Assembly (NCBI GenBank): GCA_014685065.1
Contig: GCA_014685065.1_3930.1
DNA: 64,000 bases
Origin: a phage
Direction: 5' to 3' (one strand)
Both the position numbers and the translations under genes were made by a program. Below the pieces are notes generated by a model that was given only the letters and a program-made list of their open reading frames with translations, ran no database searches and was not told where the DNA came from. Positions 47,687 to 56,805 of the stretch are shown piece after piece. Positions within the stretch are counted from its first letter, which is position 1, and each line of letters opens with the position of its first letter.

Positions 47687-49288
47687 TCAACGTCTAAGCC
47701 CCTCATATGGGTTTCCTCTCACTAAATCTGTGTGAGCACCCATTGATGGTGGCTTGAATAATTTAACTTCGTTAAGACTGTTGAAAGCATCACTGGTAGC
47801 ATCCACTTGGTCATCTTTAGTTTTACCGTCACCACAAAAGCCTTCAAGTTCTTGAAAGTAAGCTTCATTCCAACTACCTCTCAAGACTTTTACAAGTCCA
47901 GCTTCAGAAGCAGCAGAAAATCCCGCAAAGCGGGTAACTTTATCTTTATTTGTTGGTTTGGCTCTTGCTCGATAACCTTTCTCGGCAAGTTTCCTGATGA
48001 GGGATGTTGCGTAGGATTTACCAGCAGCGCCTGGGTCTTGAGGGATAAAAATACCAGTTCGCTTACCGTCACTTTCAGCAGTCAAATTAATTTGTGTTTC
48101 GACTCCAGAGGGTCTATCTCTAAATCTTACTACATCAATGATATAATAGCAACCGTCTTTTTTAGATTTACCCATCTTAACACCTGCTGTCCAGTCTGGA
48201 TTAGGGTTAATCTCAGATGGTAAAGTTGCTGCTAAGTCCCATGCTCTAACATCAAATACATCTTCTGGGAGTGAATCAACAATTTCACACCATTGTCTTT
48301 GCCAATAGTTTGAACCTTCTGCACGAGCCTTCCAGTTACCGAAACGAAGTCTTGCAACGTTTACAGGAGTGTTGTTTTCCAACTTACCACGGTACTTAGG
48401 CTCTAAGAAGTCAAGGATTGGGTTATCATCAATCGTACCAGAAATAAAGGTGTATGTTTGAGGAATCTCAAGGGGGAACATTTCAAGAATCTTGTCTCTC
48501 TCCCAATCAGAAACCATCACGCCATCGTGCATTACATACCAACGAATACGACCACATTTTTCAGGGTCTGGGTAGCCTTCTTCATCTAAGAATGGCTCTA
48601 CCCAATCGTAAATAAAGTGGTCTCTGTCTGGGTTCATGGAAATCTTCATGTATGAATCGCCTTCAGCACCAGAACGTAGACGGGTTTGTAGGTATGAAAT
48701 CTGTGAAGCAGAGAAGTGTGTACCTTCGTCAAAGTAAATAGCTGAGTATTCAATACCCTGATGACCTTCAGCGTGCTTTTCAAGTTCTAGGTAGGTAAAC
48801 TTGATAGTTGCCCCAGAAGGGAATGTGATAGTCATTTTCTGCTCGTGAGGAATCCCACCAAACTTACCAAATAGTTTCTTTGCAGCAGGCCATAAACCAC
48901 CTTGTAACTGTGTTGTATTTCGACGGAAATATACAGCATTATAGTTAGGGTCTTCAATAAATCTTAAAGAGTCCATTAACAATGCGGCAGTCTTACCAGC
49001 ACCAGCAGCACCACCATAGAGAACCAAGTCAGCATTAGTATTTAAAAAGACCTCTTGAGAACCCGGCTGAGGGGCTACATAGTTCTTATCAGTCATCAAT
49101 TTAAAGATAAGGCGAACTTGGTCTGGTGTGTATCTTAATAAAGTCAGAATTTGAGTTGGAAGGAATTTAGAGGGGTCTTTACCGAATGATTTAATAATTT
49201 CTTTTACTTCATCAGAAAGCCCCAACTCTCCAGCTAGGACTTTCCTAACATCTTCCACTCGCTTCTGCTTAACAGCATTTAAGTCCAT
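47687..49288 (-). CDS. terminase large subunit
   Basis: Start set at ATG 49286-49288 behind a GGAGG RBS (track start is TTG); Walker A GGAAGAGKTAA; about 533 aa. Confidence 0.85.
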   Translation of the reverse strand: MDLNAVKQKRVEDVRKVLAGELGLSDEVKEIIKSFGKDPSKFLPTQILTLLRYTPDQVRLIFKLMTDKNYVAPQPGSQEVFLNTNADLVLYGGAAGAGKTAALLMDSLRFIEDPNYNAVYFRRNTTQLQGGLWPAAKKLFGKFGGIPHEQKMTITFPSGATIKFTYLELEKHAEGHQGIEYSAIYFDEGTHFSASQISYLQTRLRSGAEGDSYMKISMNPDRDHFIYDWVEPFLDEEGYPDPEKCGRIRWYVMHDGVMVSDWERDKILEMFPLEIPQTYTFISGTIDDNPILDFLEPKYRGKLENNTPVNVARLRFGNWKARAEGSNYWQRQWCEIVDSLPEDVFDVRAWDLAATLPSEINPNPDWTAGVKMGKSKKDGCYYIIDVVRFRDRPSGVETQINLTAESDGKRTGIFIPQDPGAAGKSYATSLIRKLAEKGYRARAKPTNKDKVTRFAGFSAASEAGLVKVLRGSWNEAYFQELEGFCGDGKTKDDQVDATSDAFNSLNEVKLFKPPSMGAHTDLVRGNPYEGLRR

Positions 49289-49510: not shown

Positions 49511-49634
49511 TATGTTTTCTCCAAATAATTAACCATGTTTCCCCTTAAAAAAGACGGCACAGAGACCGTCAAGGAGAAACCACAATGTACGTCAGAGACA
49601 TACTGTATAAGTCTTCCTATAAAGTATAACTCTG

Positions 49635-49732: not shown

Positions 49733-49808
49733 TGGAGAATCCGAAGGGACTCGAACCCTTATAAACCTGTTTTGCAGACAGGCACATAGCCATTTCTGTC
49801 ACGGATTC
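49733..49808 (-). tRNA. tRNA-Cys (anticodon GCA)
   Basis: Hand fold: acceptor GAATCCG/CGGATTC, T-arm GGGTTCGAGTCCC, anticodon loop CTGCAAA, CCA encoded. Confidence 0.6.
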
Positions 49809-49812
49809 AAAT

Positions 49813-49905
49813 TGGAGGAAGATACCAGACTTGAACTGGTACACCGATTTCTCAGCTACTGGCAGTTTAGCAAACTGCTCCCTTACCTTTTAGGGTTAAT
49901 CTTCC
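49813..49905 (-). tRNA. tRNA-Ser (anticodon GCT), class II
   Basis: 93 nt; acceptor GGAAGAT/ATCTTCC, anticodon stem GCAGT/ACTGC with loop TTGCTAA, long variable arm. Confidence 0.55.
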
Positions 49906-49906
49906 A

Positions 49907-50641
49907 TTATTTCTGTAATGCGTTCTTCATTTCTGGTGTTGCAATAGTGTCAATTACACCAGTTTTACAGGCATCATCAAACCAGTCTGGTAAGATACCT
50001 GCTAAGAACCCATTGATATTCGTTTTAAGGTACTCTGCAATAAGGGCAGCTTCTTCTTCAATCATCTGCACAACTTCATCTGCATAAGCTGTAATCTTTG
50101 AGATACCTTCATTAATCTTACTGACAGCTTGGTTAGCTAAATCAGAAACAGTATCAAGACCCTTGTCAATAGCGTCTTGTAAGTCACTTAATACATCGTT
50201 AACACTCTCTAGTGTACTGTTAATCGTATCAATAGCTTTTTGACCATATTCTGTAGCAACACCCATAATACCACTGAACGGTGTACAACCAACTTGTTCT
50301 CCTGCTGCACCCATAACATTGGAATATCCATTTGCTACCTGCATACGTGATGAAAACTCATCAATAGATTTTTGACCGTAGTCTGTCAGGGTCTTAGTAG
50401 TTGCTGTAGTGCTTGTAAGGCTTGTTGTAAAGCTGTTTAGAAGGACTGTTGTAAGTCCAGCAGCAACAAGTTTCTCCTGCATTGTAGGGTCTGTTACAGA
50501 ACTAATAGAGCTTACAAGTGATGTAGAAGCAGCTACGGTTCCACCGAGAACTGCTGCACCAGTAATAAGTGGGTTAGAAAACCCTTTACCGGTTTTTAAG
50601 AGATTAAAAATCTCCTTACCTTGTTCTGTCATCTCTTTCAT
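49907..50641 (-). CDS. hypothetical Ser/Thr/Ala-rich protein embedded in the tRNA array
   Basis: Track ORF trimmed to an internal ATG so it does not overlap the tRNA at 50660-50734; about 244 aa. Confidence 0.4.
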   Translation of the reverse strand: MKEMTEQGKEIFNLLKTGKGFSNPLITGAAVLGGTVAASTSLVSSISSVTDPTMQEKLVAAGLTTVLLNSFTTSLTSTTATTKTLTDYGQKSIDEFSSRMQVANGYSNVMGAAGEQVGCTPFSGIMGVATEYGQKAIDTINSTLESVNDVLSDLQDAIDKGLDTVSDLANQAVSKINEGISKITAYADEVVQMIEEEAALIAEYLKTNINGFLAGILPDWFDDACKTGVIDTIATPEMKNALQK

Positions 50642-50659
50642 TAAGCACCTTTGAAATTG

Positions 50660-50734
50660 GTAGTCCAGTGGGATTTGAACCCTCTTCTCATGTTTTTCAG
50701 ACACGCGCTTTAACCATATAAGCTACTTGGACTA
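50660..50734 (-). tRNA. tRNA-Phe (anticodon GAA)
   Basis: Acceptor TAGTCCA/TGGACTA, T-loop TTCAAAT, anticodon stem CGTGT/ACATG with loop CTGAAAA. Confidence 0.5.
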
Positions 50735-50739
50735 TAAAT

Positions 50740-50815
50740 TGGGGTGACCTACGGGATTTGAACCCGTATAGACCATGTTCACAGCATGGGTCATTGCCAT
50801 TTATGATAAGGCCAC
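50740..50815 (-). tRNA. tRNA-His (anticodon GTG)
   Basis: Anticodon stem CCATG/CATGG, loop CTGTGAA; T-arm ACGGGTTCAAATCCCGT. Confidence 0.6.
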
Positions 50816-50846
50816 ATTTAAGGACTCTCGTAAGAACCCTTAGAAG

Positions 50847-50922
50847 TGGCAGCGGCATAAGGATTTGAACCTTAATAGGACAGCTTCAGAGACTGTTGCA
50901 TTGCCAGTTATGCTATACCGCT
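50847..50922 (-). tRNA. tRNA-Gln (anticodon CTG)
   Basis: D-stem GCAT/ATGC, anticodon loop CTCTGAA, T-arm TAAGGTTCAAATCCTTA. Confidence 0.55.
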
Positions 50923-50927
50923 AAATT

Positions 50928-51006
50928 TGGTACTCCATATCGGATTCGAACCGATACATAACACAGATTTTAAGTCTGGCCTCTCTGCCAATTGGAGTAA
51001 TGGAGC
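50928..51006 (-). tRNA. tRNA with Leu anticodon TAA but short variable arm (class I-like)
   Basis: Acceptor GCTCCAT/ATGGAGT, discriminator A, D-loop AATTGGCA, anticodon loop CTTAAAA, T-arm ATCGGTTCGAATCCGAT; aligns with the tRNAs at 51751 and 52329. Confidence 0.45.
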
Positions 51007-51008
51007 AT

Positions 51009-51084
51009 TGGCGGGGGATGTTGGAATTGAACCAACTTCTTCGATTTCAAAGACCGAGGTTTTAACCTTGTAAACTAATCCCCT
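51009..51084 (-). tRNA. tRNA-Gln (anticodon TTG)
   Basis: Anticodon stem TCGGT/ATCGA, loop CTTTGAA; T-arm GTTGGTTCAATTCCAAC. Confidence 0.55.
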
Positions 51085-51092
51085 TTAAATCT

Positions 51093-51650
51093 TTACTTTC
51101 TCAGTGGATGAATAAAGAATGCCAACATAACTCTTTCCCTTGAGAATGCTCTTTCTTCTGGGACAACACTTTTTAGTTTCCATCCAATATAAATTCTCCA
51201 GTAAAACTGTTTACCAAAGACTTTAATTGATGGGATAAAAGCGAATAATCCCCAAGCATTACTGTTCCACATTAGGAGATAACCTGTCTGATTATCTTCA
51301 GGGTCAGAACTTACGTTGATATTACCTTTCCACTTAGTAACATCTTTTACATCTCTTCCTAATACATGGTAAGAGAAGTTATAAGCTTTGTTTCTCCAGA
51401 GCCATCCGACTCTCTGCATGTAGACACCCAGCTTACCAATCTTTCTAATCTTAGCCCATCGTTCGATATGACCTTCGTCACCATCAATTGGATTGTCATA
51501 TGTCTCCATCCATCTAAATCCGAAAGGTAAGTGGCCTTTCTTCTCACTGTAAAATGGAACTACGAAAGGTGCTAAGATAACTGCTAAGGTTGCTGCTAAT
51601 GGTTCTAGCAAAGCTAGGAAAATCCATGAAGCATATTTTAAATATCTCAT
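51093..51650 (-). CDS. hypothetical membrane protein embedded in the tRNA array
   Basis: 185 aa; N-terminal TM segment (WIFLALLEPLAATLAVILAPFVV), Trp-rich body. Confidence 0.5.
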   Translation of the reverse strand: MRYLKYASWIFLALLEPLAATLAVILAPFVVPFYSEKKGHLPFGFRWMETYDNPIDGDEGHIERWAKIRKIGKLGVYMQRVGWLWRNKAYNFSYHVLGRDVKDVTKWKGNINVSSDPEDNQTGYLLMWNSNAWGLFAFIPSIKVFGKQFYWRIYIGWKLKSVVPEERAFSRERVMLAFFIHPLRK

Positions 51651-51669
51651 CTAAATAGCCTCTTTAAAT

Positions 51670-51745
51670 TGGCGCAGGATAAGGGATTCGAACCCCTATT
51701 AACAGCTTCGTAGACTGTTGCTCTATCCATTTGAACTAATCCTGC
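51670..51745 (-). tRNA. tRNA-Arg (anticodon ACG)
   Basis: D-arm GTTC...GAGC, anticodon stem ACAGT/GCTGT with loop CTACGAA. Confidence 0.55.
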
Positions 51746-51750
51746 AAAAT

Positions 51751-51828
51751 TGGTGTTCCAAGACGGATTCGAACCGTCACTAGTACAAGGTTTGAGCTTG
51801 CATCCTCTGCCAATTGGGATACTGGAAC
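51751..51828 (-). tRNA. tRNA with Leu anticodon CAA but short variable arm (class I-like)
   Basis: Acceptor GTTCCAG/TTGGAAC, discriminator A, D-loop AATTGGCA, anticodon stem GCAAG/CTTGT with loop CTCAAAC. Confidence 0.45.
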
Positions 51829-51829
51829 A

Positions 51830-51904
51830 TGGTACTCACTAAAGGACTTGAACCTTTTTCTTCATCTTGTAAGGGTGGTGTTTTACCATATAAACTAAGC
51901 GAGT
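51830..51904 (-). tRNA. tRNA-Val (anticodon TAC), tentative
   Basis: Good acceptor, D-arm (GTTT/AAAC) and T-arm (AAAGGTTCAAGTCCTTT); anticodon stem is weak, loop read as CTTACAA. Confidence 0.4.
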
Positions 51905-51910
51905 ATGAAA

Positions 51911-51992
51911 GAGGTCTGAAGTTGTGCCGCTAACTCAACTCCGTGGAATTTGTTACGGTCTTCAGTTGACACCAGCGGTCTTTCACTTGACC
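51911..51992. other. tRNA-sized structured element without canonical T-loop
   Basis: Terminal inverted repeat GAGGTC / GACCTC about 80 nt apart with internal hairpins (CCGT...ACGG); no GTTCRA motif on either strand. Confidence 0.35.
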
Positions 51993-51999
51993 TCTGAAT

Positions 52000-52076
52000 T
52001 GGTGCTGCTCACAGGACTCGAACCTGCATTTCCATCCTTACAAGGGATGTGTAATAGCCAATTATACGAAAGCAGC
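52000..52076 (-). tRNA. tRNA-Thr (anticodon TGT)
   Basis: Perfect anticodon stem CATCC/GGATG, loop CTTGTAA. Confidence 0.6.
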
Positions 52077-52082
52077 ATTGTT

Positions 52083-52157
52083 TGGAGCATCCAGAGGGAA
52101 TCGAACCCTCAACCTCAGTTTGGAAGACTGTAATTTTCCCGTTTAAACTATGGATGC
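52083..52157 (-). tRNA. tRNA-Gly (anticodon TCC)
   Basis: Acceptor GCATCCA/TGGATGC, anticodon loop CTTCCAA, T-arm GAGGGTTCGATTCCCTC. Confidence 0.55.
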
Positions 52158-52163
52158 ACTAAT

Positions 52164-52240
52164 TGGTGGAGAAGCAGGGAATTGAACCCTGTACTTAAGT
52201 TTGCAAAACTTATGTTTTAACCATGTAAACTACATCCCCA
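52164..52240 (-). tRNA. tRNA-Ala (anticodon TGC)
   Basis: D-stem GTTT/AAAC, anticodon stem TAAGT/ACTTA with loop TTTGCAA. Confidence 0.6.
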
Positions 52241-52245
52241 ATGTT

Positions 52246-52321
52246 TGGTACAGGTGGAGGGAATTGAACCCATCGTCTTACTGATTAAGAGTCAGCCGCA
52301 TAACCATTTTGCTACACCTGC
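52246..52321 (-). tRNA. tRNA-Lys (anticodon CTT)
   Basis: Anticodon loop CTCTTAA; paralogous in sequence to the Lys(TTT) tRNA at 53966. Confidence 0.5.
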
Positions 52322-52328
52322 ATTAATT

Positions 52329-52405
52329 TGGTACACCTAGAGAGATTCGAACTCACACTGAGCAGATTCTAAGTCTGCTGCCTCTACCAATTGGGCTATA
52401 GGTGC
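52329..52405 (-). tRNA. tRNA with Leu anticodon TAG but short variable arm (class I-like)
   Basis: Acceptor GCACCTA/TAGGTGT, discriminator A, D-loop AATTGGTA, perfect anticodon stem GCAGA/TCTGC with loop CTTAGAA, variable region only about 5 nt. Confidence 0.5.
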
Positions 52406-52663
52406 ATTAAATCTTTTTAGAGAACTTCTAAGAACCTAAGCAACAAGGTTCCACAACAAGCTGTAATAACCTTAGAAGCCCTCTAAAAAGACCTAATTTG
52501 GTCTTTGCATAGTCTTGTTTAATCCGGTGACTAGAACCTTTGGAGAGCTTGATATTATCTCTTCTCCGTGACACCTACTAGGTGCTTTACTGTGCGTGTA
52601 CGACAATACACGAGGGATACCAAAGCAACATCCGAATGAAGCTTGGCTTTAAATCTTATTAGG
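52406..52663 (-). ncRNA. structured non-coding spacer within the tRNA array (candidate small stable RNA)
   Basis: No ORF and no tRNA; several hairpins (CTTCTAAG...CTTAGAAG 8 bp; AGACC-taattt-GGTCT; CGTGTA-cgacaa-TACACG). Confidence 0.3.
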
Positions 52664-52751
52664 CGGTAAGTAAAGGAGTCGAACCCTCACCGTATCTCTA
52701 CAGTGGCAACTGTTTTCAAGACAGTTTGGCTACCATTAGCCGCTACCTACC
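52664..52751 (-). tRNA. tRNA-Ser (anticodon TGA), class II
   Basis: 88 nt; perfect anticodon stem ACTGT/ACAGT with loop CTTGAAA; long variable arm; CCA not encoded. Confidence 0.55.
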
Positions 52752-52764
52752 CCTAATAAGACTT

Positions 52765-52847
52765 TGGCATGGGACGGAGGAGTTGAACCACTTTGAAACG
52801 GTTTTGGAGGCCGTTGCTCATGCCTTAGAGTCTTAACATCGTCCCAC
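52765..52847 (-). tRNA. tRNA-Trp (anticodon CCA), atypical
   Basis: 83 nt; acceptor GTGGGAC/GTCCCAT, anticodon region ACGGC-CTCCAAA-ACCGT; T-stem imperfect. Confidence 0.4.
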
Positions 52848-52989
52848 ACTATAATTCGAAGCTTACCGTATTTTCACAACACTGTAAAGCCCCTTCTCAG
52901 ATTATTTACATGTTCTGGAAAACATGAGATACAGACCACCTCCTTACACGGAGACCCGATAAGGTCGTCTAAGCAATCTGCTAACTATT

Positions 52990-53066
52990 TGGCACACCCT
53001 ACAGGATTCGAACCTGTAACTAACGATTTAGAAGACCGTTGCTCTATCCAATTGAACTAAGGGTGC
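52990..53066 (-). tRNA. tRNA-Arg (anticodon TCT)
   Basis: Anticodon stem ACGGT/ATCGT, loop CTTCTAA; T-arm ACAGGTTCGAATCCTGT. Confidence 0.55.
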
Positions 53067-53313
53067 ATTAATCTTTAAAGACTCTCTTAGAAAGCCCTTA
53101 AAGATGCCCACCTTATTAATCATACCGTGGGCGAGTACGCCAAATTCTTTGATGAGGGATTGGAAGACCTCACTGGTGTTTAGCCTATCAAGCTACTGCC
53201 AGAAAAACATTGTCGTTTGCATTTATTTTAAATTTGCAAAATAGACGCTACGCAACGAAAACTAAGGTTACTATAAAGTGGTCACATCTCAATGTCAACA
53301 ACTTTATTGAAAT

Positions 53314-53389
53314 TGGTACTGTGAGAAGGATTCGAACCTTCTGCCTTTCGGTTATCAGCCGAATGCACATCCATATGTGCTTTCACAGC
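53314..53389 (-). tRNA. tRNA-Ile (anticodon GAT)
   Basis: Perfect anticodon stem TTCGG/CCGAA, loop CTGATAA. Confidence 0.6.
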
Positions 53390-53868
53390 ATTGTTACCCC
53401 TTCGTGTACCTCTCTGTGGCAATTTGCACACAGTAATACACACTTATCAACTTCAGACTTCATTACCTCTATAGAGAAGTGTTTTTGTCCTACTGTGAAG
53501 TCCTTTGTATTAGGGTCTAAGTGGTGAAACTCTAAAGCCTTTATGCACTTATTGTATCCACAAATTGAGCAACAACCACCTTTGTAATCAACTAAAACCC
53601 TCTTAAGTTTGTCACGAGACTTTTTAACGTGTTGTGACTTCGCTTTCTTTTCTTCATCGGGGTTTTTGTATTGTTTCAGAATACCATTTGAAATACATTC
53701 ATCACAATACTTTCTTGATTTTGGTGTTTGTTTTCCACATGAATGACAAGAGCCTTCTTGTCTTCTTTTTGGATGACTCTTGTTGTTTACCCTTGCAGCA
53801 CAAGAGCGTGAACAATATTTTCCGCCTTTAACGGCTTTGTTGTCACAATCTTTATTAGCACAAAACAT
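53383..53868 (-). CDS. HNH homing endonuclease
   Basis: Trimmed to ATG 53866-53868 (RBS GGTGA) so it does not overlap tRNAs; Cys-rich N-terminal region; C-terminal HNH motif EFHHLDPNTKD...CANCHREVH. Confidence 0.7.
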   Translation of the reverse strand: MFCANKDCDNKAVKGGKYCSRSCAARVNNKSHPKRRQEGSCHSCGKQTPKSRKYCDECISNGILKQYKNPDEEKKAKSQHVKKSRDKLKRVLVDYKGGCCSICGYNKCIKALEFHHLDPNTKDFTVGQKHFSIEVMKSEVDKCVLLCANCHREVHEGVTML

Positions 53869-53884
53869 AATATCACCAACGAAT

Positions 53885-53961
53885 TGGAGGTTCAGATGGG
53901 AATCGAACCCACATTCATAGGGCTTATGAGACCCCTGCATTACCTTATCTGCGACTGAACC
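53885..53961 (-). tRNA. tRNA-Met (anticodon CAT)
   Basis: Acceptor GGTTCAG/CTGAACC perfect; anticodon stem GGGGT/GCCCT, loop CTCATAA. Confidence 0.55.
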
Positions 53962-53965
53962 ATAT

Positions 53966-54041
53966 TGGTAGAAGTGGAGGGATTCGAACCCATCGCCTGT
54001 CAGATTAAAAGTCTGCCGCATCACCATTCTGCTACACTTCC
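53966..54041 (-). tRNA. tRNA-Lys (anticodon TTT)
   Basis: Anticodon loop CTTTTAA; T-arm ATGGGTTCGAATCCCTC. Confidence 0.5.
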
Positions 54042-54045
54042 ATTA

Positions 54046-54181
54046 AAATTATCTTTGTAGATAAGCTATCCAGACTTGCTTAAGGTCTGTAGCGATGTGC
54101 CTTGTTGGGTTTAAATCTAGAATTTACCCTTTCACTCTTTGTGGTCGCATACTCACAGGTAAGCTTAATAACTTATCTACA
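54046..54181. repeat. 19-bp perfect inverted repeat flanking a ~98-nt spacer
   Basis: aattatctttgtagataag (54046-54064) is the exact reverse complement of cttatctacaaagataatt (54163-54181); inner CAGAC...GTCTG hairpin. Confidence 0.55.
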
Positions 54182-54241
54182 AAGATAATTACCAGACCGT
54201 TGTTTATCATCTTAAGTGCTACCATTACACCAACTCGACAT

Positions 54242-54266
54242 CTGCCGAGTGAAGGAATCGAACCTT
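54242..54266 (-). other. tRNA 3'-half-like fragment (T-arm plus acceptor 3' strand only)
   Basis: Canonical GAAGGTTCGATTCCTTC T-arm followed by ACTCGGC-A, but no complementary 5' acceptor strand found within 120 nt. Confidence 0.3.
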
Positions 54267-54497
54267 CGCCTTTTCTTTACCGGAGAAATAGATTGTTTAA
54301 GTTTTGCTGTAAACGGTCTTCTGTAAATTTGTTGAGCCAGACCAAGTTTTAAATTTTCAAAATTAAATTGGCTTGAAATTTCATACATTCTTGCTGTATT
54401 TGGTCTTCTGCTCCTTTAAAGAATACTCGTAAGAACCCTTTAAGGGAGGGGCTAAATAGCCCTCTCAAAACATCATCTTGAAATACTTATTATAATT

Positions 54498-54574
54498 TGG
54501 CGGTTACGAAGGGATTTGAACCCTCATCATCTCCCGTGACAGGGGAGTATTTTAACCAGTTAAACTACATAACC
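54498..54574 (-). tRNA. tRNA-Asp (anticodon GTC)
   Basis: Perfect anticodon stem CTCCC/GGGAG, loop CTGTCAC; D-stem GTTT/AAAT. Confidence 0.6.
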
Positions 54575-54580
54575 TTTATT

Positions 54581-54668
54581 TGGTGTGCCGTGTAGGAGTC
54601 GAACCTACCGAGTCTCAATGACAAGGGATTTACAGTCCCCACCGCTACCATCTACGGGATAACGACAC
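54581..54668 (-). tRNA. tRNA-Tyr (anticodon GTA), class II
   Basis: 88 nt; anticodon stem GGGGA/TCCCT, loop CTGTAAA; long variable arm. Confidence 0.5.
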
Positions 54669-54737
54669 ATTTAATTTCTATTCAGGCTAAGGACTTGCAC
54701 CTTACAAATCGGTGAGCAATCGCTTCTCTCCTAAATT

Positions 54738-54814
54738 TGGCGGTTAGTCAGGGATTCGAACCCTGTGCCATTCGCTTAACAGGCGACCGCACATACCTTA
54801 TGTGCTTCCTAACC
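54738..54814 (-). tRNA. tRNA-Asn (anticodon GTT)
   Basis: Anticodon loop CTGTTAA; T-arm CAGGGTTCGAATCCCTG. Confidence 0.5.
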
Positions 54815-54891
54815 TTAATACATTGCCAGACCGTGTTTTTTCTTTTATCCGCAAAAAGTATTTTGTTGCTGAATACGGTCTTCTGCAAAAT

Positions 54892-54968
54892 TGGAGGCGG
54901 GTGCAGGAGTCGAACCTGCCGATACCATGCTAATGAGACATGTGAGACGCCCTTTCTCTATACCCGCA
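54892..54968 (-). tRNA. tRNA with anticodon CAT (Met or Ile2), tentative
   Basis: Anticodon stem CATGT/GCATG, loop CTCATTA (position 37 is T, unusual); 1-72 mismatch in acceptor. Confidence 0.4.
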
Positions 54969-55059
54969 ATTCTTAATGACCAGACCAAATCTCTTCTTTG
55001 TCCGATTTACCTTCAGATGAATAAGATTAAGTTTGCTGTAATTGGTCTTCTGTCAAAAC

Positions 55060-55137
55060 TGGCGTTCCAGAAGGGATTTGAACCCTCAAATATCCACTTT
55101 GAAAGAGTGGTGACTTTACCATTTTGTCTACTGGAAC
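55060..55137 (-). tRNA. tRNA-Glu (anticodon TTC)
   Basis: Perfect acceptor GTTCCAG/CTGGAAC and anticodon stem CCACT/AGTGG, loop CTTTCAA. Confidence 0.6.
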
Positions 55138-55144
55138 ATTAATT

Positions 55145-55224
55145 TGGTCTCCGTTGAAGGATTTGAACCCTCGACCCCTTGCTCCCAAAGCAAGTGCTGC
55201 TAAACCAAACTGAGCTAAACGGAG
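55145..55224 (-). tRNA. tRNA-Pro (anticodon TGG)
   Basis: Perfect acceptor CTCCGTT/AACGGAG and anticodon stem CTTGC/GCAAG, loop TTTGGGA with G37. Confidence 0.6.
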
Positions 55225-55342
55225 ATAAACTTTTCAAACTCTATGTAACCACTTTAACATTATTTTTTAGTGGTTGTCAAGAACTTTTTTAAAATATTTT
55301 TCAGTATCTTAGAAAAGCTCTCATTTCGTTTCTATGTAGAAC

Positions 55343-55371
55343 ATATTAAAGGGTATCAAACACATTGTCAA
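55343..55371 (-). promoter_or_regulatory. sigma70-like promoter reading into the tRNA array
   Basis: On the minus strand: TTGACA - 17 nt - TAATAT; lies inside a GGGTAT...ATACCC hairpin just downstream of the vWA gene stop. Confidence 0.55.
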
Positions 55372-55389: not shown

Positions 55390-56805
55390 TTACCAGATGT
55401 AACGGTCAATCATTACTGCTTTGAGCATTACGCTGATTGGGTCAAACTTCTCACCACCAAGCAGAGCTTTTAAAGTGGCTGGAGAGAACCCTGATACCAT
55501 TGCTACACCATTATCCTTAACAGATACTTCGCAAGTACCATTACGGTTTGCTAAGTACCAGAATACCAGTTGTGGCATTTTGTATCCAGCTTTTTTGTAC
55601 TTACTACGAATCGCTTCAAAGTTTGTACGACCATTAGCTCCATCAACCTGATTGAACTCCATATCAGAGAAGATAATAAGCTTACTTGGCATATCTTTCT
55701 GAGTCAAGTTGTTTCTCTTACCTGTTTCAAGAATGCGGTCAAAAGCTGCTTGTAAGTTAGTTGAGCCATATTCAACGTGTCGCATCACCTGACGATGACG
55801 GTTTCGTAAATCACCACTCAGTTCGATGAAGTGAGGGTTTGTCGAATAAACCATCAACTCATTCTTAAAGCAACCTGTATTGCGTTCTGCTACATACAAG
55901 GCAAGTGATACACCAATATCCAGAGCAGTAATGGAGCCAAAATTCACCCAAGACATTGAACTTGATACATCAGACATACACAAGATGTTTTCACCTTCTG
56001 CCATCCAGTTTGGTAGTGCTTTCCACTGCTCATTAGCAACATCTGCATTACCATACTTGACAGATTTAATCACATCGTATGGGTAAACAGCACCAGCGTT
56101 AATCTTAGTCTCACCTTTTGATAAGGACTCGATGTAAGCTTTGTAACGCTCTCCATCTTTACGGTTAAACAGTTTTTGGTAACGTGCAGCAGCAAGTGAA
56201 GGAATCTTACTGTAGTCAATCTTACCAAACTCATTAGCAGAGATTTTTTGCTCAACTGTATCAGATAGTGCAGACAACAGTGTGCGATACTCTTTCTCAC
56301 TCAAGTTTGCAAACTTGCAGAAACGTTTTACAAACTGTTTGTGACGTGGTTTTACTCGTGGTAACCACTTAGCTGCTAAACCTGCTGTTGCAGGGTCTAG
56401 TAAAGCTGCTTCTAAATGTTTGAAGGCATCTGTCTCGAAACGAGTACCTACAAAGATTTTGAAGTCATCAAAGCGACCAAGCTCTGCAATCTTATCCATA
56501 ATGCGAAGAACCTGCGTAGGCTCTAAAACTTTATCTTCAATCGCTTGAAGTAAAACAGTTCGGAAAGCTTTACGCTCACCCATACCTTCTCGTACATCTC
56601 GCATATGCAGTAAAATACGAACTGCAACATCAACATCCTCATGCAAAGCTTTGTAGAACAAGTCTGGTAAGATTTCTACATTGCTACGGCTGGAACCAGC
56701 AGCTTTGTAAAAGTCCACAAGAGCAGACATTGATGAAGTATGGTTTACAGCACCATTTTCAGTTCGACCTGCATGAAGGTGCGCATGTTTAAATAATTCG
56801 CTCAT
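55390..56805 (-). CDS. von Willebrand factor A (vWA) domain protein, possibly Ro60/TROVE-like
   Basis: 471 aa; C-terminal region has a MIDAS-like DxSxS motif (MSDVSSSMS) and later LIIFSDMEF; N-terminal half is helical. Adjacent to the tRNA array. Confidence 0.5.
   Translation of the reverse strand: MSELFKHAHLHAGRTENGAVNHTSSMSALVDFYKAAGSSRSNVEILPDLFYKALHEDVDVAVRILLHMRDVREGMGERKAFRTVLLQAIEDKVLEPTQVLRIMDKIAELGRFDDFKIFVGTRFETDAFKHLEAALLDPATAGLAAKWLPRVKPRHKQFVKRFCKFANLSEKEYRTLLSALSDTVEQKISANEFGKIDYSKIPSLAAARYQKLFNRKDGERYKAYIESLSKGETKINAGAVYPYDVIKSVKYGNADVANEQWKALPNWMAEGENILCMSDVSSSMSWVNFGSITALDIGVSLALYVAERNTGCFKNELMVYSTNPHFIELSGDLRNRHRQVMRHVEYGSTNLQAAFDRILETGKRNNLTQKDMPSKLIIFSDMEFNQVDGANGRTNFEAIRSKYKKAGYKMPQLVFWYLANRNGTCEVSVKDNGVAMVSGFSPATLKALLGGEKFDPISVMLKAVMIDRYIW

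Follow-up and report, generated by a model that had tools for sequence, protein, structure and literature searches.

Three leucine tRNA genes without a long variable arm in the tRNA array of a Felix O1-type phage: probable substrates of the host leucyl-tRNA synthetase

The stretch of phage DNA analysed here, 64,000 nucleotides (nt) from contig GCA_014685065.1_3930.1 of NCBI GenBank assembly GCA_014685065.1 and referred to below as the window, carries an array of 26 tRNA genes. Three of these have leucine anticodons (UAA, CAA and UAG) and a short variable region, the type I form, instead of the long, stem-forming variable arm of class II tRNAs:

50928–51006, minus strand: tRNA-Leu(UAA), 79 nt including the encoded CCA (ARAGORN; Rfam, 47.5 bits), with anticodon at 50970–50972, D-loop motif AATTGGCAGA at 50984–50993 and variable region GTTATGT at 50956–50962
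51751–51828, minus strand: tRNA-Leu(CAA), 78 nt including the encoded CCA (ARAGORN; Rfam, 43.6 bits), with anticodon at 51792–51794, D-loop motif AATTGGCAGA at 51806–51815 and variable region ACTAGT at 51779–51784
52329–52405, minus strand: tRNA-Leu(UAG), 77 nt including the encoded CCA (ARAGORN; Rfam, 58.9 bits), with anticodon at 52369–52371, D-loop motif AATTGGTAGA at 52383–52392 and variable region TCAGT at 52357–52361

Folds were called with ARAGORN over the whole window, and the Rfam covariance model RF00005 served as an independent check. Both find the three genes where a preliminary description of the stretch had placed them, and the 7-nt anticodon loops, CUUAAAA (UAA), CUCAAAC (CAA) and CUUAGAA (UAG), stand in the same register in the ARAGORN cloverleaves and in the Rfam model. 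A different register, which that description had named as a possible objection to its own reading, is thereby ruled out. The variable regions of 7, 6 and 5 nt fall in the range first described and can form no stem; none of the three tRNAs has the stem-forming variable arm of more than 10 nt by which a bacterial class II tRNALeu is recognized. The 7- and 6-nt regions of Leu-UAA and Leu-CAA are fixed among Felix-like orthologues, and 100% identical copies of Leu-UAG are present in other Felixounavirus records.

All three genes have a D arm with a 3-bp stem, a C13·A22 mismatch and the loop A14 A15 U16 U17 G18 G19 Y A G A, together with U8, U48 as the last variable nucleotide, U54, U55, C56 and A58 in the T loop, and A73. 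The D-loop AATTGG(C/T)AGA, the T-loop TTCGAAT and A73 had been singled out at the outset and recur in every one of them. The specific D arm, U48 and A73 are what unites the three, and to this extent they may be called paralogous, as they were in the preliminary description. Their mutual identity of 68–73%, however, only modestly exceeds the mean of 59–62% that they show to the remaining class I tRNAs around them, and Arg-UCU of the same array reaches 75% identity with Leu-UAG. Recent paralogy was downgraded on this modest excess; the term is weakly shown by the sequences and is acceptable only as a statement of family membership. The G1·U72 wobble with which Leu-UAA and Leu-UAG begin is also seen in Escherichia coli leuZ. 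In the wider type I family treated below, G·U is the most frequent 1:72 pair in phages (64 of 128 distinct copies) and is rarer in bacterial chromosomal copies (20 of 93).

The rest of the array provides the setting in which the short arms have to be read:

49733–55224, minus strand: tRNA array, 26 tRNAs including the three Leu genes (ARAGORN, over the window)
49813–49905, minus strand: tRNA-Ser(GCU), 93 nt, class II, with a 21-nt variable arm (ARAGORN)
52662–52751, minus strand: tRNA-Ser(UGA), 90 nt, class II, with a long variable arm (ARAGORN)
54581–54668, minus strand: tRNA-Tyr(GUA), 88 nt, class II, with a 15-nt variable arm (ARAGORN)

The 26 tRNAs cover 19 amino acids, with no tRNA-Trp among them. 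The Ser and Tyr tRNAs have long arms, as had been noticed before; their variable regions measure 15–22 nt overall and 21–22 nt in the Ser tRNAs. tRNA-Ser(GCU) is an internal control, in which the long arm is kept where the synthetase needs it. As for tRNA-Ser(UGA), the last letters of the ARAGORN call are GCC, and a clean CCA is not encoded. The gene is not listed by the general tRNA model of Rfam, its best match being tRNA-Sec at 39 bits, below the family threshold; in all probability it is no more than a class II Ser tRNA that has diverged in sequence.

The array is 93–97% identical to those of Felixounavirus genomes (Felix O1, KEP3, garuso and others), and the phage is a Felixounavirus of the Felix O1 type. 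Matches to the array occur in about 350 related, Ounavirinae-like phage records. The Felix O1-like relatives, whose G+C content is about 39%, are virulent myoviruses that infect E. coli, Salmonella and related bacteria, and their records annotate the three genes plainly as tRNA-Leu. In the complete 89.6-kb genome of Escherichia phage MET-P1-301, all 26 tRNAs lie in the homologous array and the same three Leu genes are intact, each with its encoded CCA. ARAGORN found no class II Leu tRNA in the window, and neither a class II nor any other Leu tRNA is present in the complete MET-P1-301 genome, which agrees with the initial observation. The further claim that the three are the only Leu decoders holds for the phage-encoded set; it does not hold for the infected cell, since E. 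coli has class II isoacceptors of its own. The Erwinia relative phiEa21-4 has a tRNA-Trp, and in place of Leu-UAG it has Leu-AAG at another position of the array; anticodon content therefore shifts within the Ounavirinae. In the paper on the Felix O1 genome there is no mention of an aminoacyl-tRNA synthetase (PMC3185647).

The comparison with host Leu tRNAs proposed in the preliminary description was made with five distinct E. coli K-12 Leu isoacceptor genes, all class II and 85–87 nt long. These were fetched by coordinate, a blastn search of 5,426 complete E. coli genomes with the phage Leu-UAG having given no match. The phage Leu tRNAs match them over the full length, and the sole gap, of 8–10 columns, lies exactly at the variable arm. 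Three of the host genes, leuZ(UAA), leuX(CAA) and leuW(UAG), have the same three anticodons as the phage set and share with it the 3-bp D stem, the 13·22 mismatch, the AAUYGGUAGA loop, A73, U8 and A14, A15 and U48, and the encoded CCA. Nevertheless, there are distinct differences between the two sets: the host genes have stemmed variable arms of 13–15 nt, identity outside the arm is only 0.43–0.65, and positions 32, 37 and 38 of the anticodon loop are not the same.

What the D arm, U48 and A73 may mean is suggested by work on E. coli leucyl-tRNA synthetase (LeuRS). The identity set given for this enzyme in a 2023 review consists of A73, A15–U48, G18G19, A20a, U8:A14, G18:U55, G19:C56 and U54:A58; the enzyme can do without the anticodon and without the long arm, and it still charges an arm-less minimal tRNALeu (PMC9976931). 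All sequence features of this published set are present in the three phage genes, and the tertiary pairs, A15–U48 and the contacts between D and T loops, are predicted to form in them. The G3:U70 determinant of alanyl-tRNA synthetase (AlaRS) is absent, the 3:70 pairs of the three genes being U-A, U-A and A-U, and so are the features of seryl-tRNA synthetase (SerRS) substrates, a long arm and G73, the three genes having a short region and A73. Isotype scoring points the same way: for the orthologues Leu_TAG, Leu_CAA and Leu_TAA of Sf14, a Shigella phage and Moogle-like relative with an orthologous array, the top tRNAscan-SE isotype is Leu (67.4, 49.1 and 60.2), in all cases 'Consistent' (PMC12482277, 2025). 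That paper never mentions the variable arm. For the Leu tRNAs of Felix O1 itself, Cove scores of 52.2, 46.2 and 57.9 have been reported (PMC3185647).

Two known kinds of tRNALeu show that leucylation need not involve a long arm. The first is the minimalist E. coli tRNALeu without variable and/or anticodon arm, which, as cited in the review, is leucylated if A73 and the D/T-loop contacts are intact (Larkin et al., 2002, via PMC9976931); these molecules are engineered and were charged in vitro, whereas the phage tRNAs are natural, and both conserve A73 and the D/T-loop features. The second is animal mitochondrial tRNALeu(UUR), a natural type I tRNA whose identity depends on A73 and A14 with no long arm needed (PMC9976931). 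Unlike the phage tRNAs, it is organellar, relaxed in structure and served by a dedicated LeuRS.

Short-arm Leu tRNAs are not peculiar to this array. In a blastn search of 50,697 phage records, Leu-UAG gave ungapped matches, at 73–83% identity, to annotated tRNA-Leu genes of 74–80 nt in Mycobacterium, Streptomyces and Gordonia phages, in Enterococcus and Lactobacillus herelleviruses and in Vibrio, Pseudomonas and Sinorhizobium phages. The hosts of phages with such homologues include Actinobacteria, Firmicutes and Proteobacteria. Among other groups of enterobacterial phages, matches belong to the Vequintavirinae (KaOmega), the Demerecviridae (DU_PP_V) and Kolesnikvirus (phiEa21-4). The genes of phages Cali, BoomerJR, KaOmega, DU_PP_V, TJE2, Bacchae, D486 and phiEa21-4 belong to the same family and resemble the window genes in D arm, U48 and A73. 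So does the short-loop tRNALeu(UAG) of mobile tRNA clusters in Mycobacterium, noted in one sentence by Behra et al. (2019; PMC6582537). Mycobacterial and phage members differ from the window genes in their hosts and anticodon sets, and every one of the six Leu anticodons is represented in the family.

A short-form sequence pattern found at least 120 loci in IMG/VR, on contigs of 26% to 61% G+C. Among the loci listed, ARAGORN called 211 short Leu tRNAs with all six anticodons and 32 long ones, while the Ser and Tyr tRNAs stay long. With no constraint on arm length, 22 of the 87 matches listed were short and 65 long; among the matches listed at loci with at least five tRNAs, the figures were 19 and 26. 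These numbers and the bacterial ones that follow are lower bounds on motif-selected samples, and some of the 'long' viral matches probably represent tRNALeu genes of the host that lie at the borders of prophages. In bacterial assemblies taken at one genome per species, nearly all listed matches to the short-only pattern are tRNA-Leu genes of 74–78 nt. Among the matches listed, 93 of 117 are solitary chromosomal genes, mostly of Actinobacteria: near-identical type I genes, mainly with UAA or CAA anticodons, stand alone in Mycobacterium, Rhodococcus, Nocardia, Corynebacterium, Bifidobacterium, Gordonia, Arthrobacter and others. Some of the remaining bacterial genes sit in tRNA arrays of Bacteroidota and cyanobacteria. 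The solitary chromosomal genes from our own scan resembled the window genes in the D arm, CCCAAUUGGCAGAGG, in A73 and in the AGU with which the variable loop ends, and Leu-UAG of the window is up to 83% identical to them. The actinobacterial spread thus appears to far exceed the single Streptomyces case that is called rare in the literature. The premise, also stated at the outset, of class II Leu tRNAs in bacteria and in most phages is the textbook view; it calls for revision, given how common the short form is in phage arrays and in many bacteria, mostly Actinobacteria.

The window genes have mean identities of 0.61–0.71 and maxima of 0.77–0.86 to the type I family, against 0.38–0.65 to E. 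coli tRNALeu, and are therefore assigned to the armless lineage. A recent origin from host genes by deletion of the arm was rejected on the same comparison. Judged from these surveys, armless tRNALeu is a widespread lineage that departs from the textbook, and both types occur among coliphages, since the tRNALeu(UAG) of phage T5, also part of a large coliphage tRNA array, is an 85-nt class II molecule.

Within this lineage the sequences bear the marks of selection. Of 292 pattern matches, 283 fold into good cloverleaves, and A73 is present in all 283 of these, even though A73 was absent from every pattern. All of the 128 distinct phage copies have U8 and U48, U48 is found in all but one of the collected family members, and the Leu D arm with U8, U48 and A73 is invariant or nearly so across the 128 phage and 93 bacterial distinct members. 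Conservation at positions fixed by a pattern is inflated, however, because the family was gathered by sequence patterns and passed through a mild cloverleaf filter. Covariation was scored for 110 distinct phage sequences aligned to the class I cloverleaf, with column shuffles and slid partners as controls. Paired cells made up 98.8%, compared with 59.6% in the shuffles; both-side changes were seen in 20 of 20 stem pairs; and the covariation score was 1.03, compared with 0.23 for shuffles and 0.11–0.16 for slid partners, figures on which the pre-filter and the patterned D loop have only a slight bias. Pseudogene status of the Leu genes was rejected on this covariation and on their retention, and the type I family is under strong structural selection in phages.

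The codons that these tRNAs would read were examined in the coding sequences. The Leu codon shares in 64 open reading frames (ORFs) of the window are TTA 27%, CTT 28%, CTG 15%, TTG 14%, CTA 10% and CTC 6%, and E. coli, the host, strongly prefers CTG among its Leu codons. A similar point on codon usage has been made for Leu[TTA] in the Felix O1 paper. We aligned 14,755 codons of the window ORFs to their MET-P1-301 orthologues and counted replacements. TTA was exchanged with other Leu codons 103 times and with non-Leu codons 28 times; the corresponding counts are 74 and 15 for TTG, and 74 and 9 for CTA. Leu swaps are thus 3.7–8 times commoner than non-Leu swaps, they include two-base changes to CTG and CTT, and the non-Leu partners are mostly hydrophobic (Ile, Val, Met and Phe). 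Codons read by the phage tRNAs interchange with codons read only by the host tRNALeu(CAG/GAG). Since TTA, TTG and CTA swap freely with CTG, CTT and CTC, all six evolve as leucine. Signs of recoding or suppression, a stop anticodon or non-synonymous behaviour of the codons, were not found in this comparison, and the anticodons are those of sense Leu codons.

Taken together, these observations make it highly likely that the three genes encode functional, leucine-accepting type I tRNALeu charged by the host LeuRS. Of the two possibilities raised in the preliminary description, unusual short-arm Leu tRNAs or decoding of Leu codons with a different identity, the first is the one upheld by the identity elements, the isotype scores of the orthologues and the codon swaps. 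In the mechanism that we propose, host LeuRS would charge the three phage tRNAs with leucine, and the set of UAA, CAA and UAG anticodons would duplicate three minor host isoacceptors and could cover the UUR and CUN codons. These codons are favoured by the phage, with its 39% G+C, far over the host-preferred CUG, and the tRNAs would thereby sustain translation of phage genes as a decoding supplement for an AT-rich genome, possibly until late in infection. Loss of the arm would be tolerated in Leu and not in Ser or Tyr tRNAs, because LeuRS alone is reported to do without it and SerRS is reported to need it; the reliance of the tyrosyl enzyme, TyrRS, on the long arm is part of the same argument.

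Several points weigh against this reading. The most direct is biochemical. The type I tRNALeu(CAA) of Streptomyces coelicolor, which has a 5-nt stem-less variable loop, was leucylated experimentally by its own LeuRS, and E. coli LeuRS gave no leucylation of it; the E. coli enzyme is described there as charging type II tRNALeu only, and the Streptomyces enzyme is called the only prokaryotic LeuRS that charges both types (Fan et al., 2019; PMC6614811). In the present case the host has class II tRNALeu only, and its LeuRS is the one reported as inactive on the Streptomyces tRNA. The two kinds of substrate do differ, however. The variable loop of S. coelicolor tRNALeu(CAA), ACAGC, ends in C48, whereas the window tRNAs have U48, loops of 5, 6 and 7 nt, a place in a phage array and a UAG isoacceptor among them. 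The failure of E. coli LeuRS on the Streptomyces tRNA may have arisen because C48 breaks the A15–U48 determinant.

Other reservations concern the phage tRNAs themselves. Their anticodon loops differ from those of the host cognates at positions 32, 37 and 38; in Leu-UAG the base at position 37, G37 and the m1G37 site in host leuW, is A, with positions 32 and 38 differing too, and Leu-CAA has C38 and hence no A36A37A38 determinant for MiaA and TrmL. Leu-CAA without this motif would therefore be without what i6A37 requires, and hence without what TrmL requires for 2′-O-methylation of position 34. Thus, Leu-UAG and Leu-CAA are probably modified differently from their host cognates, and the decoding properties of the phage Leu tRNAs may differ from those of the host. 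There are also stem mismatches, C27·U43 in Leu-UAA and U50·U64 in the T stem of Leu-UAG. The inflation of conservation at patterned positions counts on the same side, as does the fact that charging by an enterobacterial LeuRS is what we infer from sequence.

Three other explanations were weighed, of which the first refines the proposed one rather than replacing it. It holds that the loss of the arm and the loop changes at positions 32, 37 and 38 have been kept as protection from host toxins or nucleases that target tRNA, such that under an attack on the host class II tRNALeu translation would continue through the phage tRNALeu. By analogy this is conceivable, since the MenT3 toxin anchors on the long arm of tRNASer and can be retargeted to tRNALeu via the orientation of the arm (PMC11541572). 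Changes such as those in Leu-UAG and Leu-CAA have been linked to anticodon-nuclease resistance (PMC12482277), and here too they could reflect escape from anticodon nucleases; armless Leu tRNAs are, moreover, enriched in phage arrays across hosts that use class II tRNALeu. We nevertheless regard evasion as unlikely to be the reason for the short arm. Actinobacteria carry the armless type as ordinary chromosomal genes, so that no defence rationale is needed, and neutral loss of a dispensable arm or inheritance of an armless lineage fits equally well. To our knowledge, no defence system of E. coli or Salmonella targets tRNALeu through its long arm.

A distinctly less probable account treats the genes as inactive passengers, horizontally acquired and armless, which enterobacterial LeuRS charges poorly or not at all and which are either non-functional or act only as RNA, as decoys or fragments. 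The negative result with the Streptomyces tRNA would be expected on this account, as would the closer relationship of the genes to actinobacterial and phage type I tRNAs than to host tRNALeu and the decayed tRNA-like remnants in the same array, which are described below. Against this stand the intact genes with encoded CCA in MET-P1-301 and the occurrence of the array in about 350 records, the presence of short-arm Leu tRNAs in the Vequintavirinae and Demerecviridae as well, the covariation of all stem pairs and the invariance of A73, U8 and U48 in the phage family, and the fit of the anticodon set to the codon bias of the phage. Moreover, the review reports that E. coli LeuRS charges an arm-less minimal tRNALeu (PMC9976931), and the Streptomyces tRNA on which it failed has C48, not U48.

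For most synthetases other than LeuRS, AlaRS and SerRS the anticodon is a main identity element. The last explanation, that the tRNAs read UUR and CUN codons but carry another amino acid and that Leu codons are partly reassigned, is very unlikely: its sole support is the missing long arm, A73 being common to several other identities, and it is opposed by the Leu anticodons, by the Leu-specific D arm with the full E. coli LeuRS set, by the absence of the AlaRS and SerRS elements, by published isotype models that score the orthologues highest for Leu (PMC12482277), by the free interchange of TTA, TTG and CTA with the other Leu codons and the rarer, mostly hydrophobic, non-Leu swaps, and by the host class II tRNALeu, which would decode the identical codons as Leu anyway.

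The array is flanked and interrupted by the following elements:

47687–49288, minus strand: large terminase gene, on one flank of the tRNA array (Pfam)
49553–49570, minus strand: terminator-like hairpin with a T run behind it, lying downstream of tRNA-Cys, the last of the array
49907–50641: ORF inside the array, DUF7217 (Pfam)
51093–51650: ORF inside the array, DUF7338 (Pfam)
53383–53874, minus strand: Cys-rich ORF inside the array, without a Pfam match at E <0.01
55251–55371, minus strand: two candidate promoters, sigma-70-like by consensus match (TTGACA...TAATAT and TTGACA...TG..TAAAGT), a short way upstream of the tRNA with which the array begins
55390–56805, minus strand: DUF7788/DUF2828 gene, on the other flank of the array (Pfam)

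The hairpin is a candidate for the end of the array transcript; terminator-like sites number 10 in the region against 4.5 expected. The promoter scan of the region gave 13 sites against 13.5 expected by shuffling, that is, no excess. Relatives have an HNH endonuclease annotated within the array, and homing endonucleases are interspersed in the tRNA region of T5 as well. Four gaps of 238–456 nt in the array (52406–52661, 52752–52989, 53067–53313 and 54042–54497) hold no tRNA and no ORF of at least 100 amino acids. T-loop-like remnants were seen in two gaps, GGTTCAACTC at 52780–52789 and GGTTCGATTC at 54255–54264, the latter overlapping a sub-threshold Rfam tRNA match at 54250–54300 (22 bits). 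The gaps have the appearance of tRNA genes in decay or, alternatively, of stable RNAs other than tRNA, of the kind annotated in the T5 array.

Part of this picture is already known. The genes have long been annotated as tRNA-Leu, a role in supplementing codons is conventional, and type I tRNALeu is known from mitochondria, from S. coelicolor and from the one-line mycobacterial note (PMC6582537). The literature on type I tRNALeu that we found comprises the Streptomyces study and that one sentence; we found no paper that describes short-arm tRNALeu in phages, whose genome papers list the genes without comment. Nor did any paper that we found point out that armless tRNALeu is used by phages of E. 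coli and Salmonella, or by phages generally.

The main interest of the finding is that it conflicts, in a way open to testing, with what has been published on the specificity of E. coli LeuRS. According to textbooks and one biochemical paper (PMC6614811), bacterial tRNALeu is almost always class II and E. coli LeuRS charges class II only. The present array and the many related phage arrays predict the opposite for E. coli and Salmonella: three armless Leu tRNAs, of a kind that the hosts lack, are maintained by selection in the phages. If the phage tRNAs are charged, the rule that A73 and the elbow suffice and the arm is dispensable would be confirmed in nature, and the negative result with the Streptomyces tRNA would reduce to one determinant, possibly C48 versus U48. 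There are practical consequences as well: tRNA-seq pipelines and isotype classifiers that assume type II Leu would mis-bin armless Leu tRNAs, and such tRNAs may serve as compact scaffolds for the design of anticodon-independent suppressors. A wider and speculative reading, which we hold to be improbable as a whole, is that the armless lineage is native to Actinobacteria and has spread horizontally through phages of at least three bacterial phyla, that LeuRS enzymes well beyond Streptomyces, including that of E. coli, accept type I tRNAs with A15–U48 and A73, and that the armless form is kept to escape toxins or nucleases that recognize the arm. Should this prove true, Felix O1-like phages would offer a tractable E. 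coli system both for the acceptance of such tRNAs by LeuRS and for the question of escape through loss of the arm.

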